64,000 nucleotides of DNA from Candidatus Eiseniibacteriota bacterium (GTDB lineage Bacteria > Eisenbacteria > RBG-16-71-46 > JABDJR01): positions 1,536,001 through 1,600,000 of the forward strand of contig CAWANH010000029.1 of NCBI GenBank assembly GCA_963783375.1, in the 5' to 3' direction. Shown here one piece after another: positions 42,825 to 48,650 of the stretch. The notes beneath the pieces are model-generated. The model searched no databases and was not told the DNA's origin. It worked only from the letters and a program-made list of their open reading frames with translations. The number at the start of each line of letters is the position of its first letter. Positions within the stretch are counted from its first letter, which is position 1. The position numbers and the translations under genes were made by a program.

Positions 42825-43873
42825 CCGGAGCGCCGCTCCGCCGGGACGCGCGCTCTCGCGCCGGGGGGGCGGGGAACGGAACCGCGCGGGCGCGGGGAAT
42901 CCTGGCCCTGGCGGCGATGGTGACCCTGGTCGGCTGCTCGGGGGGCGCCGGGCGGGCGGACTCCGAGACCTCCGGCGCGTCGAGCGGCCCGGCCGCCGCC
43001 ACCCCGGTCCGGGTGGGTGCGATCCGGCGCGACACCCTCCGGGTCACGGTGACCGCCCCCGGCCGGACCGTGGTCCTCCGGGAGGAGACGGTGCGGGCTC
43101 CCTTCGCCGGCACCCTCACCCGGCTCGCGGTGACCGACGGGGATCGGGTCTCCGCGGGTGAGGAGCTGGGGCGGCTGGTCTCCCGGAGTTCCGAGGCGGC
43201 CCTCGAGGGCGCCCGGGCCATGCTGGCCTCGGCGCGGACCGCCCAGGACTCCGCCGATGCCCGCGACGCCCTGGACCTGGCCCGGCGGGATTGGGTGGAG
43301 CGGACCCTCGAGGCTCCCGAAGCGGGGGTCGTCCTCTCCCACGCCGCGAGCCTTGGGGACCGGCTGGGCGAGGGGGACGAGATACTGCGGATCGCCGCCG
43401 ACGGCTCGGCGGTGTTCCGGGCCGACGTGTCCCAGAACGATCTGGCCCTGATCGCGCCCGACCAACCCGCCCGGGTGCGCCTGGCCGCCCGCTCCGACAC
43501 CCTCGGCGGGACCGTCCACGGCGTCCTCCCCGCCGCGAGCAGCTCCACCTTCAGCGCGCCGGTGCGGATCGACTTCCGCCGGGGACTGCCCGTTCCCGCG
43601 GAAGGGCTTTTCGGCACCGCGACCATCGTGGTCGGGGAGCGCGCCGGGGTTCTCTCCGTCCCGGTGGACGCGGTCCTGACCGACGACGTCACCGGCGTGT
43701 CCCGGATCGCCGTGGTGGACGGCGGAACCGCGCACTGGATTCCCGTCCGAACCGGGGTCCGGGATCGCGGCCGGGTCGAGATCACCGGCCGGGGCATCTC
43801 CGACGGCGCCCGGGTGATCGTGTCCGGACAGGTGGGTCTTCCCGACAGCTCCGCGGTCCGGATCGCCTCATGA
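42821..43873 (+). CDS. RND efflux periplasmic adaptor (lipoprotein)
   Basis: Lipobox LVGC; lipoyl-like V.APFAG......GD.V..G; VP.DAV, V.TG; ATGA overlaps at both ends. Confidence 0.88.
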   Translation: MTGAPLRRDARSRAGGAGNGTARARGILALAAMVTLVGCSGGAGRADSETSGASSGPAAATPVRVGAIRRDTLRVTVTAPGRTVVLREETVRAPFAGTLTRLAVTDGDRVSAGEELGRLVSRSSEAALEGARAMLASARTAQDSADARDALDLARRDWVERTLEAPEAGVVLSHAASLGDRLGEGDEILRIAADGSAVFRADVSQNDLALIAPDQPARVRLAARSDTLGGTVHGVLPAASSSTFSAPVRIDFRRGLPVPAEGLFGTATIVVGERAGVLSVPVDAVLTDDVTGVSRIAVVDGGTAHWIPVRTGVRDRGRVEITGRGISDGARVIVSGQVGLPDSSAVRIAS

Positions 43874-46800
43874 CCGCTCTCCAGTCGATCCGGCGACGGT
43901 GGGTCGCCATCTTCGCCCTGGTGATCGTCCTGGCCGGCGCGGGGGCCTACGTGATCCGCGGGCTCCCCTCGGCGATCTTTCCCTCGGTCACCTTCCCCAT
44001 CGTCAAGGTGATCGTCGACGTGGGCGAGGAGCCGGCGGCCCGCATGATGCCCACGGTGACCCGCCCCCTGGAGGAGGCGGTCCACCGCGTGCCGGGCATC
44101 CAGGTGGTGCGCTCCACCACCTCCCGGGGCTCCTCGGAGCTCAGCACCCAGTTCGCCTGGGGCACCGACATGAAGGTGGCGCTCCAGCGCGTGCAGTCGG
44201 AGACCCAGCGCATCCTCCCCGACCTCCCCCCCGACACCCGGATCGACGTGGAGTGGATGAACCCGGCCTCGTTCCCCATCCAGGGGTACGCGCTGACCTC
44301 GAAGACCCGGAGCCAGGCCGAACTCCTCCGCCTGGCCGAGTTCACCCTGAAGCCGGAGCTGATCCGCATTCCCGGGGTGTCCCGGGTCGAGATCCAGGGG
44401 GGGCGGAAACGCGAGTTCCAGGTGCGTCTCGATCCGGCCGCGGTGGAGGGGCGCGGTCTCTCGGTGGGGGACGTGGTGTCGGCGATCCAGGAGAACAACG
44501 ACGTTCTCTCGGCCGGGTTGACCGAGGAGAACCACGAACTCTACCTGACCCTGGTGGACGGCCGTTCCCACGGACTGGACGACCTCTCCCGGCTCGCGGT
44601 GCCGGTTCCCGGCGCCTCTCCGGCCACCCTGGCCGAGCTGGGTACCCTGGAGGTGGCGGACGAGGTTTCCTACATCCGGACCACCGCCGACGGCGACTCG
44701 GCGGTGCTGGTCAACCTCATCCGCCAGCCCTCGGCCAACACCGTGGCCATCGCCGACGGGGTGCGCCGGCTGTTCCGGGAGAGCCCGGATCTCCTCCCCC
44801 ACGATGTCCGCTGGACCACCTTCTACGACCAGGCCCGGTTCGTGGCGGCCTCGGTGAACGGAACCCGTGACGCCATCCTGATCGGGGTGGTCCTGGCCGC
44901 GCTGGTGCTCCTGGCGTTCCTCGGCAAGGTGCGGCTCACCCTGATCGCCGTCCTCACCATCCCCTTCACCGCGGCCATCGTGGGCCTGGCCCTGGGCGCC
45001 CTGGACCAGACCGTGAACCTCATGACCCTGGCCGGGGTGGCGGCGGCGATCGGGCTGATCGCCGACGACGCGATCGTGGTGGTGGAGATGATCGAGCACG
45101 AGGCCTCGGAGAACCCCCACGGGGACCCGGCCGAGCGGGGCCTGGACAAGATCCTCCCCGCCCTCATCGGCTCCAGCCTTTCCACCACCCTGATCCTCCT
45201 CCCCTTCGCGCTCCTGACCGGGGTGGTCGGCGCGTTCTTCCGGCCGCTGGCCCTGACCATGGCGGTGGCCCTCACGGTGTCGTTCTTCCTGGCCTGGCTC
45301 TGGGTTCCGGCGGCGGTGGGCCGCTTCGGCATCCGGCGGCGGCACCCGTCCGAGGCCCCGCCGGACGAACCGGCCGGCGGCGAGTCGGCGCCGGAGGCGC
45401 GGAAGCAGGCGCCGGAGGCCGGGTCCTTGCGCGCCCGGTGGCGGGCGATCACCGCGACCCTGTCCCGAGGCTACGACGGGGTGGCGGCCTTCCTGGTGGA
45501 CTATCCGCTGGTGGCCGCGCTGGTGATCCTGGGGCTGATCGCGGGCACCGCGTACACCTACCGCCACATCGGCACGGACTTTCTGCCGAGCATGGACGAG
45601 GGGTCGATCATTCTCGACTACTGGACCCCGCCCGGGACCTCCCTCACCGAGACCGACCGCATGCTCCGCGAAGCGGAAAAAGTCATCCAGGAGGTCCCCG
45701 ACGTCCAGAGTTACTCGCGTCGCACCGGGACCCAGCTCGGCTTCTTCATCACCGAGCCCAACTCGGGCGACTACGTGATCAACCTGAAGCCGCGGGGAAC
45801 CCGCCGCCCGGTGGACGAGGTGATCGACGATCTCCGGACCCGGATCGCCGCGGTGGAACCGGCCATCAGCACCGACTTCGGACAGCTCCTGGAGGACAAC
45901 ATCGGGGACCTCACCGGGGGCACCCCCCAGCCGATCGACGTGAAGATCTTCGGGAGCGATCTCCAGGTGCTCGAGGACAAGGCCCGCCGGGCCGCGGACA
46001 TCATTTCCGGGGTACCGGGGGTCGAGGACGTGTTCGACGGCATCACCATCGCCGGTCCCGCCCTGAACATCCGGGTCGACACCCAGGCCGCTGGCGCGCT
46101 ACGGGCTCACCACCCAGGACGTCTTCCGGGCCCTGGAGCCGGCGGTCAACGGAACGGTGGTGGACCGGGTCCGGGTGGGCGACCGGGTCTACGATCTTCG
46201 CGTCCTGGCGCGGGGGGACCACCCCCTTTCCGATCTCCGCATCCGGGCCAACGACCCGCCGTCGACCCTGGTGCCGCTCTCCGAGCTGGCCAAGATCACC
46301 ACCGGGCCGCCCGAGGCCGAGATCGACCGGGAGAACCTCCGCACCTACTTCGGCGTGACCGCCCGCCTCTCCGGCCGGAGCCTGGGGGCGGGGATCGCGG
46401 ACATCCGGCGCGAGCTGGCCCGAAAGCTCCAGCTCCCCGCCGGCATGTCCATCCAGTTCGGGGGTCTCTACCAGCAGCAGCAGGAGTCGTTCCGACTCCT
46501 GCTCTACGTGCTCCTGGCCGGGCTGGCCCTGGTGGCGGTGGTGCTGCTCTTCGAGTTCGGGGACTGGCGGGCGCCGCTGGTGACCGCGTTCTGCGCGGCG
46601 GCGGTCCTGGCCGGGGTGCTGGTGGCGCTCCTGGTGACCGGCACCACCCTCAACATCTCGAGCTACGTGGGGGCGATCATGATGGTGGGGATCGTGGGTG
46701 AGAACGCGATCTTCGTGATCCACGAGGCGCGGTTGCAGCTGGAATCGGGGCGGACGGTCCGCGAGGCCTGGCTCAACGCGTCCCATCGCCGGCTCCGCCC

Positions 46801-46996
46801 GGTGGCCATGACGGTGCTGGCCACCTCGCTGGCCCTCGCGCCGCTGGCGGTGGCCCTCGGCCAGGGCTCCCAGCTCATGCAGCCCCTGGCCATCGCGGTG
46901 ATCGGCGGGTTCGTGCTCTCGGGGCCGATCGTGCTCCTCCTCCTCCCCGCGCTCTACCGCTGGCTGGACCCCACCGGGAAGCTCGGGTCGGCGTAG
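43870..46996 (+). CDS. RND efflux permease (AcrB/CzcA-like); frameshift near 46090
   Basis: FP.VTFP.V, N.MTL.G.AAAIGLIADDAIVVVE, FLPSMDEG; continues in the 46157-46996 frame with GIVGENAI and RLRPVAMT. Confidence 0.88.
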
Positions 46997-47042
46997 GCGC
47001 CGGACCGGGGATCGAAGGAGCGCCGGAATCGCGCCGGCGGGG

Positions 47043-47402
47043 TCAGCCGATTCCCAGCCCGCAGTCGGGGCACTCCCGGGGGCCGGTGGCGAAGGTGGTT
47101 CCGCAGGCCGGACAGGTGATCTCGGGAGCGTCGAGGTCGATCACGCACTCCGCCGCCGCGCGCTCGTCCTCGCCGGCGCTCCGGTACCAGTCCGCGCGCA
47201 GGGCGGCCAGGGCGTTCTCCGCGTCTTGGCTTGCGACCGCAAGCTGCACCTTGGGGCTTCAGGTGTTCCGCATCGCCGCCGGGCGGATGATGTGGGCCTC
47301 GATCCCGGCCTCGGTCAGGACGCTCCGATACTCCCTGATCTGGCGGATGCCCGCCTCGGCCAGGATGCTCAGTCCGGGCGCTTCGTTCACGTCTTTCTCC
47401 AT
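47043..47402 (-). CDS. Candidate selenoprotein: small protein with in-frame TGA (47261-47259) and C-terminal Zn ribbon CPACG...CPDCG
   Basis: One frame reads MEKDVNEAPG...IIRPAAMRNT-TGA-SPKVQLAVAS...TCPACGTTFATGPRECPDCGLGIG*; SECIS-like hairpin follows the TGA; alternative GTG start at 47390 has a GGAG RBS. Confidence 0.75.
47229..47244 (-). promoter_or_regulatory. Putative bacterial SECIS element
   Basis: GCUUGC-GGUC-GCAAGC, a perfect 6-bp stem starting 14 nt after the UGA, with a GGUC apical segment like the E. coli fdhF SECIS. Confidence 0.7.
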
Positions 47403-47663
47403 TCGCCCTGGCCCGGCCCGTCCACGAGCCGGCTGCATTGGGGCCTGCCTGAAGTCTAGCAGAGGCCGCGGACGCGGCCTCGGGGGATAGGACGCAGAAG
47501 CCCGGCCGGAGGTCACGATCCGGCCGGCGTTCGCCGACCGCGGTCCCCCCGGCACCCCGGGTGGGGTATGCTGGAGACCCCATGGCGTTCTGGTCCTTCG
47601 AGGTCCCGGTCCCGGATTCGGATCGGGGCTCGGCGGATCGCCGGTTGAGCGAGGCGGCGGACC

Positions 47664-48650
47664 ATGCCCACCAACGTACCTCCCCAGTACCGCGAAGCCG
47701 AGGCCCGCTACCGCGCGGCCCGCACCCCCGAGGACAAGCTGGCCGCCCTGGAGGAGATGCTTCGCATCATGCCGAAGCACAAGGGCACGGACAAGCTCCA
47801 GGCCGACGTCAAGGCGCGGATCGCCAAGCTCCACCAGCAGCAGGAGGGCTCGAGGCGGGGGGGCGGCGGCCGGAGTCACGTGATCGCCCGGGAGGGGGCG
47901 GGCCAGGTGGCCCTGGCGGGCCCCCCCAACGGCGGGAAGTCGTCCCTGGTGGCCGCGCTCACCGGGGCCGAGCCCAAGGTGGCCGACTACCCCTACACCA
48001 CCCTCGAGCCGGTACCGGGGATGATGCCCCACGAGGACGTCTTCCTGCAGCTCATCGACCTCCCGGCCATCTCCACCGAACACGTCGAGCCCTGGGTCTA
48101 CGACCTGGTCCGCCACGCGGACCTGCTCTGGATCGTGGTGGAGAGCGGCGGCGCGCTGGACGGGCTGGAAGCCACCCTCTCGCTCCTCGCGGCCAAGCAC
48201 ATCGAGACGTACCCGCTGGGGACGCCGGCCGGGGAGGGGGATCCCACCTGGGTCCGCAAGGCGGGCATCCTGGTGGTGACCGGCATGGACAAGCCAGGCT
48301 CCGCCGACAACCTGGAGATCCTTCGCGCGCTCATCGAGGCCCCATGGCCGATCCTCGCGGTGTCCCCGGTGAACGGTCACGGTCTGGAGGAACTCGGCCG
48401 GCGCACCTACGAGGCCCTCGACGTGATCCGGATCTACACCAAGGAGCCGGGGAAGCCTCCGGACCGGGTCCGCCCCTTCACCCTTCCCCGGGGCGCCACC
48501 GTGGCCGATCTCGCCGAGACCATCCATCGCGAGCTGGCCCAGGGGTTCAAGTTCGCCCGCCTCTGGGGGGAGGGGGTGTTCGACGGGCAGCAGGTCCAGC
48601 GGGACCACGTCCTCCAGGAGGGGAACGTGGTGGAGCTTCACCTGATGTAG
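47664..48650 (+). CDS. DRG-like OBG-family GTPase with TGS domain
   Basis: N-terminal PKHKGTDKL...K.RIAKL; G1 GPPNGGKSS; G2 YPYTT; RIYTKEPG; TV.DLA..IH, ARLWG, GQQV..DHVL. Confidence 0.88.
   Translation: MPTNVPPQYREAEARYRAARTPEDKLAALEEMLRIMPKHKGTDKLQADVKARIAKLHQQQEGSRRGGGGRSHVIAREGAGQVALAGPPNGGKSSLVAALTGAEPKVADYPYTTLEPVPGMMPHEDVFLQLIDLPAISTEHVEPWVYDLVRHADLLWIVVESGGALDGLEATLSLLAAKHIETYPLGTPAGEGDPTWVRKAGILVVTGMDKPGSADNLEILRALIEAPWPILAVSPVNGHGLEELGRRTYEALDVIRIYTKEPGKPPDRVRPFTLPRGATVADLAETIHRELAQGFKFARLWGEGVFDGQQVQRDHVLQEGNVVELHLM

Follow-up and report, generated by a model that had tools for sequence, protein, structure and literature searches.

The window analysed here, a 64,000-nucleotide stretch of a Candidatus Eiseniibacteriota genome, carries on its minus strand a short gene interrupted by an in-frame TGA. 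Reading of the sequence places this TGA (47261-47259) in one frame with an upstream ATG at 47402 and the stop TGA at 47045-47043. Read-through from the ATG gives 119 amino acids with selenocysteine (Sec) as residue 48 (U48), and there is no second internal TGA in the frame. The original prediction described this 119-residue protein. The read-through frame stands, but translation probably starts at the GTG at 47390-47388, because a Shine-Dalgarno-like GGAG motif (47397..47400, minus strand; putative function) lies 6 nt before it and because the ATG is missing both from the closest relative (locus L043), which keeps the GTG, and from a contig of an RNA run (X8). The probable extent of the gene is therefore 47043..47390 (minus strand), encoding 115 aa with Sec at position 44. 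The ATG start adds four codons, and residue numbers in the structure description below count from it.

The public annotation holds the window's gene as a 68-aa C-terminal fragment (P0190), so that the truncation expected from standard annotation is on record. Our first protein search returned 31 matches, mostly C-terminal fragments as well. No promoter-like site was found in 46900-47700. The gene stands alone, diverging from a GTPase gene and converging on an RND gene. The former (47664-48650, plus strand) encodes a 328-aa GTPase with a TGS domain, which scores under the cut-offs of the ObgE and YchF models and is presumably of the DRG type. The latter is an efflux gene of the AcrB/CusA type (about 43870-46996, plus strand) with a frame change near 46090, where L043 reads through intact; the change is an assembly indel or a real lesion.

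The TGA in reads and homologs

An in-frame TGA may stem from a sequencing error or mark a pseudogene, may be a genuine stop that separates two small genes, or may be read as Trp; for the window's gene we consider all of these very improbable. Contigs from four runs, belonging to four different studies, cover the TGA and its downstream hairpin with no other letter at 47259-47261 or in the hairpin, so the TGA held up in the read check proposed with the original prediction. One of the runs (X1) may be the source of the window, and four further runs with small shares (X6, X7, X9 and X10) were left out. The contigs of X4 and X8 differ from the window at 11 and 21 other places, respectively. X8 is an RNA library, and its contig covers 47086-47461, giving neither expression level nor strand. 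The gene's own stop is also TGA, which implies that UGA is not generally reassigned in this organism. In favor of a true stop, the databases carry C-terminal pieces of 66-72 aa; these fragments, however, begin just past the TGA and at differing codons. The same TGA also recurs across several phyla in alignment with Cys, and the two halves of the protein are both conserved and are modelled as a single domain.

We read the codon at this column in several sets of loci. Among 61 genomes, the source genome included, 7 have a homolog, and all 7 carry one TGA at the same column. The species-genome collection, the source genome and three relatives together gave 32 loci (four ribbon-only matches dropped, recurring loci counted once), of which 24 have TGA and 6 have Cys; the 2 loci with neither encode distant Anaeromyxobacteraceae proteins. 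For metagenomes, 27 of 32 loci were read (five ribbon-only matches dropped, near-duplicates kept), with 20 TGA, 5 Cys (one shifted by one residue) and 2 other codons. Matches were found in 38 of 401 genomes of a Myxococcota sample, and the 30 loci read there comprise 15 TGA, 13 Cys and 2 with neither. A Planctomycetota sample has matches in 45 of 401 genomes, and its 30 loci comprise 16 TGA, 12 Cys, 1 TGG and 1 CTC. Two loci in each of the last two sets repeat loci of the earlier sets. TGA or Cys thus dominates the column, the outcome looked for in the original prediction.

A few homologs have other residues there, which is a point for the non-Sec reading. Trp occurs in P0044, in a cluster of four proteins represented by P0169 and in L205, Arg in P0003 and Leu in L204. 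The Arg, Trp and L205 variants are a small minority whose codons each differ from TGA by a single base; we read them as probable losses. The existence of Trp, Arg and Leu variants implies that the residue is dispensable in some lineages. L205 (G676:C59) has TGG at the Sec column yet keeps a perfect hairpin, and its genome has selA. We considered whether UGG might be decoded as Sec in the Trp variants and set this idea aside, as L205 is more simply explained by a recent change of one base that left the hairpin as a relic.

The SECIS-like hairpin and the selenocysteine machinery

The hairpin (GCTTGC-GGTC-GCAAGC; 47229..47244, minus strand) lies over the codons for Q-L-A-V-A-S. It has a 6-bp stem and a GGUC loop and begins 14 nt after the TGA. 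Its position and sequence agree with the original prediction, which had also remarked on rare codons ending in A or T; in the long ORFs of the source genome, CTT accounts for 6.7% of the codons for Leu and GCA for 2% of those for Ala. These two codons make a U-A pair that stands in for C-G in 5 of 24 TGA loci. The SECIS of E. coli fdhF has the same GGUC loop. Published criteria for bacterial SECIS elements are a loop of 3-9 nt, a stem of 4-16 bp, a G at loop position 1 or 2, a UGA-to-loop distance of 16-37 nt and a minimum free energy ≤ -7.5 kcal/mol (accessible text of PMC13188914). The hairpin lies within all of these ranges, with a loop of 4 nt, a stem of 6 bp, GG at the start of the loop, 20 nt from TGA to loop and -7.8 kcal/mol.

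Taken alone, the stability of the hairpin is at chance level (z -0.98; 29 of 200 shuffles fold equally well). This point favors the non-Sec reading, and we dropped stability as evidence. About 14% of synonymous recodings of the window's gene yield 6 of 6 pairs, and the synonymous chance of full pairing is 3-21% per TGA locus, as codons for L-A-V-A-S favor pairing. Within the source genome, 16 of 96,470 TGAs show this stem, loop and offset, a pattern that was picked after seeing the site. The significance of the hairpin therefore comes only from comparison across homologs and not from the stability of a single sequence.

This comparison is clear. In the 32-locus set, all 24 TGA loci form the full six pairs at one common offset, so that 144 of 144 cells are paired, and two-sided, compensatory changes occur at 3 of the 6 pairs (7 cells). 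None of 500 shuffles pairs as highly, a figure that is not a probability because the rows are kin and not independent; slid controls are 19-51% paired. Among the six Cys loci of this set, one only has 6 of 6 pairs, with a different loop, and the Cys set as a whole pairs at 67%, a level reached by 52 of 500 shuffles. In the Planctomycetota sample, the six pairs are present in 13 of 15 mapped TGA loci versus 0 of 12 Cys loci. Ten Myxococcota TGA loci have a hairpin of other sequence, over other amino acids, at about the same place. Judged from these alignments, the hairpin pattern tracks the codon and not the protein alone. The covariation suggested as a check was thus found, with pairing kept in all TGA loci of the 32-locus set.

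The source genome (97% complete) has selA, selB and selD over the NCBIfam cut-offs, together with tRNA-Sec, as the original prediction required, and its selD itself has an in-frame TGA. We also examined the co-occurrence of selA with the gene. It is present in 30 of 31 carrier genomes, which says little given a background of 183 of 206 genomes of the phylum; moreover, selA occurs in all 5 tested carrier genomes with Trp, Leu or Cys at the Sec column. We regard this co-occurrence as uninformative. By analogy with established bacterial biology, SelB carrying Sec-tRNA would very probably bind the GGUC loop and decode the UGA as Sec.

Other UGA candidates were seen in the same genome. One gene outside the window (L167; G000:C28:2010677-2011240, minus strand) encodes a 188-aa protein with a signal-peptide-like N-terminus and an in-frame TGA; as in the window's gene, a hairpin with a perfect 6-bp stem and a GGTC loop starts 14 nt after the TGA. 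In 61 genomes, 9 of its 10 matches have TGA at the column, and 8 of those 9 have the same stem. No Cys homolog was seen among the matches, and a full-length relative (P0194) has Trp there. The L167 protein has no Pfam match (E ≤ 0.1) and no NCBIfam match (E ≤ 0.01), and its structural model (pLDDT 84) resembles the beta-sandwiches of CBM6/CBM35, with E about 1e-6. No selenoprotein of this kind was found in the accessible parts of a 2026 review (PMC13188914) or in a literature search. On its sequence features, L167 is a candidate exported selenoprotein family, possibly newer than that of the window's gene. A multiheme c-type cytochrome gene (L078; G000:C1:16688-18232, minus strand) has a TGA in frame, in the context G-E-G-U-G-G-E, and a hairpin after it; no selenoprotein cytochrome model passes for it. 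Two further genes score over the cut-offs of selenoprotein models: a predicted SelT/SelW/SelH selenoprotein (G000:C28:1346027-1346377, plus strand; TIGR02174) and a predicted selenoprotein with a TUGYCR-motif thioredoxin fold (G000:C28:396424-397131, minus strand; NF053656).

Relationship to the DG family and predicted fold

The original prediction recognized no classical selenoprotein family in the protein. This did not hold, as all 49 aligned members match the NCBIfam model NF049953 at E ≤ 0.001, a family published in 2025. The model (ribbon_DG_selen, "zinc ribbon-containing (seleno)protein DG"; profile length 172, cut-off 130 bits) represents a predicted selenoprotein, "hypothetical protein DG", which was reported with deep-Sep from two Desulfosediminicola genomes (Xiao & Zhang 2025, accessible text of PMC12013277) and is listed with the motif GUxG in the 2026 review (PMC13188914). 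The read-through protein matches NF049953 over profile positions 61-170 of 172 with E 7.5e-22 and 78.1 bits, under the cut-off. Its identity to the top-scoring member (P0057) is 32% over 112 aa.

A profile search returned 961 representatives at E ≤ 0.001. Represented among the best 150 of these 961 are long forms that carry a second ribbon at the N-terminus, short forms with Cys, and C-terminal fragments. When 40 proteins were scanned, 14 scored over the NF049953 cut-off, namely 13 long forms and a 132-aa protein resembling a long form that has been shortened. The long forms score 169-266 bits. A quick tree with 132 rows unites 22 long forms (SH-aLRT 93) and places the Sec loci apart from them, beyond a poorly supported branch (SH-aLRT 73), with Cys loci nested among the Sec loci. 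Nine changes between Sec and Cys are needed on this tree, 3 of them forced by well-supported branches; as these counts rest on the quick version only, the number is soft. Because its score is under the cut-off and the long forms occupy a separate branch, the window's gene is, on sequence comparison, a short sister subfamily of DG and not a member by the HMM's own terms. We assign a probability of roughly 0.9 to its identity as a Sec-recoded short relative of DG, a figure that does not extend to the carrier function. With high probability, then, this is a real, mis-annotated selenoprotein gene. A literature search on the family names gave only the deep-Sep paper (PMC12013277) and the review (PMC13188914) as relevant; it retrieved no selenoprotein with DUF2007 and nothing on Eisenbacteria with selenocysteine. 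The short form may already be included in BSepDB (PMC13326102) or in Haft & Tolstoy 2025.

We modelled the protein with AlphaFold2 on an alignment of 49 sequences (pLDDT 87.8, pTM 0.65). The model has a strand at residues 11-17, a helix at 19-31, a strand at 36-39, the Sec loop, a strand at 52-57 and helices at 58-75 and 78-84, followed by the ribbon; the domain thus has three strands, and the parts on both sides of the UGA belong to it. The predicted beta-alpha-beta-loop(Sec)-beta-alpha domain (residues 11-75) corresponds to 47178..47372 (minus strand). The ribbon (CPAC-x10-CPDC; 47061..47114, minus strand) follows the pattern CxxC-x10-CxxC, with four Cys that are invariant in the 49 sequences; it matches Zn_ribbon_3 at E 5e-5, under the cut-off, and zinc is its presumed metal. 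The model and the invariant Cys support the small alpha/beta N-terminal domain and zinc ribbon of the original prediction.

Sequence searches found no solved relative better than E 0.059, and Foldseek gave no match at E ≤ 0.001. The top hits in VIA-align are the ring-building domains of type III secretion proteins EscJ/PrgK (Z 7.8-8.6), a likeness that we take as a common fold arrangement only and not as a clue to function. VIA-align also places the model on 2hfv, which we take to be a DUF2007 structure, with Z 6.5 and an rmsd of 3.9 over 65 residues, which may mean only a common fold. In Pfam, PF09413 (DUF2007) matches 1 of the 49 members, with E 6e-4 and below the cut-off. The label "DUF2007-like" in the original prediction finds weak, sub-threshold agreement in Pfam.

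A second family of interest is PF11823 (DUF3343). In Pfam it matches 4 of the 49 members, all sub-threshold (best 19.9 versus a cut-off of 25 bits), and the window's own protein has no Pfam match to it. In hhalign, an alignment against 25 PF11823 members from the same phylum places the Sec on their invariant Cys with 81% probability; the value is 89% when Cys-type sequences are included and 36% for a Cys-free related set, all of these being pairwise scores and not database E-values. A 98% hhalign match to alignment A7, a set of ribbon-bearing proteins of the phylum, was set aside as functional evidence because ribbon columns inflate the score. We found no stand-alone PF11823 gene over the cut-off in the source genome.

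Candidate functions and comparison with known systems

The Sec is predicted to be exposed on a flexible loop between strands 2 and 3, and the C-terminal four-Cys ribbon to bind Zn as a structural or partner-binding module. In our lead guess, which we hold tentatively and at less than even odds, the protein is a small sulfur/selenium carrier: the selenol would take up sulfane sulfur or selenium as a per-chalcogenide and hand it to a partner protein, as proposed for DUF3343. The carrier role leads because the alignment sets the Sec against the Cys that is invariant in DUF3343. For that family, a function as a Se/S trafficking chaperone has been proposed from gene context only (Lin et al. 2015, accessible text of PMC5322559); its proteins are 80-100 aa long and often encoded beside YedF or Sec lyase genes (PMC5322559).

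The cysteines of the loop bear on a second reading, a redox sensor or switch (a sensor role was suggested in the original prediction), which is possible and in our judgment doubtful. The loop Sec would form a selenenylsulfide with an upstream or a ribbon Cys (the latter with release of Zn), and this would alter partner binding, as in PII-like or DUF2007-type signal proteins. We counted upstream Cys within 8 residues of the Sec column, with loci collapsed at 90% identity and L069 (a Cys type with a partner Cys) left unclassed. All Cys-type homologs have such a second Cys in the loop (21 of 21 loci), which agrees with a switch, versus 28 of 47 Sec-type loci; the spacings range from 1 to 8, unlike the CxxC of thioredoxin. 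The remaining 19 of 47 Sec forms, the window's protein among them, have no upstream Cys to serve as a partner. The absence of a CxxU motif noted in the original prediction is thus true of the window's protein and not of the family. Under the carrier reading, a second, resolving Cys would be needed nearby in the Cys versions, and the Sec versions would do without it. Weak Foldseek matches to PII proteins (E 0.07-0.2) and the 2hfv likeness also speak for a switch, but the modelled domain has three strands and PII has four.

CC and C-x(2-5)-C(C) loops resemble metal-binding loops, and such loops occur in the Cys homologs. They raise a third reading, unlikely in our view, of a chelator or chaperone for soft metals or metalloids (Hg, Cu, As) acting through the Gly-rich Sec/Cys loop. 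A lone Sec, however, makes a poor chelating site. The convergence on an RND-family efflux gene in the window would suit this reading, yet that neighbor is common to the window and its closest relative L043 only, and no metal-resistance genes recur among the 112 flanking ORFs (the nearest ORF on each side of the loci).

We searched the same 112 ORFs for other clues to function. None encodes YedE, YedF or Sec lyase, and no neighbor common across the Sec loci was found. One is a selB (L066:3322-4521), which lies tail to tail with a Sec-type homolog. A DRG-like GTPase is near the selenoprotein gene in 4 loci only. Two links to Cys types could favor the redox switch: a small PilZ-domain gene stands directly after the gene, on the same strand, in 7 of 7 long two-ribbon Cys-type loci (L142-L146, L148 and L149), and one Cys-type clade adjoins a peroxiredoxin gene. 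As the seven PilZ-linked loci also form one clade, both links are limited to single clades, and we rejected gene neighborhood as a functional clue. No result separates the carrier, redox and metal readings firmly.

A broader version of the carrier reading is speculative and, taken as a whole, rather improbable. The short DG subfamily could be a Sec branch of the DUF3343 carrier fold, a stand-alone S/Se shuttle in which one exposed Sec stands in for the Cys pair that its relatives have. It would occur in Eisenbacteria, Myxococcota, Planctomycetota and Nitrospirota, its genes would be broken up in gene calling, and it would have switched several times from Sec to Cys or back, the SECIS being lost or gained along the way.

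The parent DG family, itself a prediction, is already in print and in NCBIfam. Our analysis adds a shorter form, found under at least four other phylum labels, that the existing HMM cut-off misses and gene callers split. The family has corresponding Sec and Cys versions in which the SECIS is retained or has decayed and the partner Cys is kept or lost, a natural test set for the advantage of Sec over Cys. The placement of Sec on the invariant Cys of DUF3343 also points to a specific assay with which work on the function of both families could begin.

Among known systems, the PII superfamily has a four-stranded ferredoxin-like fold that forms a trimer; the domain modelled here has three strands. 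The likeness to DUF2007 (PF09413, "Putative prokaryotic signal transducing protein") consists of a weak profile match under the Pfam cut-off and a similar fold. The ribbon-bearing A7 proteins of the same phylum have no Cys in the loop equivalent to that of the Sec. DUF3343 (PF11823, "Putative Se/S carrier protein-like") has the same order of secondary elements as the window's protein, and the invariant Cys of its CG motif, in the loop before strand 3, is the aligned position of the Sec. The window's family differs in having a ribbon and no YedF or Sec lyase neighbors among the flanking ORFs scanned.

DG, the homologous family, differs in having an N-terminal ribbon (profile 1-60), of which there is none in frame upstream of the window's gene, and hence in length (170-195 versus about 115 aa). 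Its motif is GUxG, compared with T-U-S-P here, and it has an upstream partner Cys (C-x3-U; PMC12013277) that the window's protein lacks. In a by-eye reading of the alignment, the Sec of DG is one residue further from strand 3. An indel of this one-residue type is seen among the Sec forms at locus L141. The two Sec may correspond to one residue displaced by such an indel, with a single origin, or may occupy adjacent positions of the family's CC pair, with two separate origins. Common to DG and the window's protein are the core alpha/beta domain, the C-terminal CxxC-CxxC ribbon and the placement of Sec or Cys in the same loop just before strand 3.
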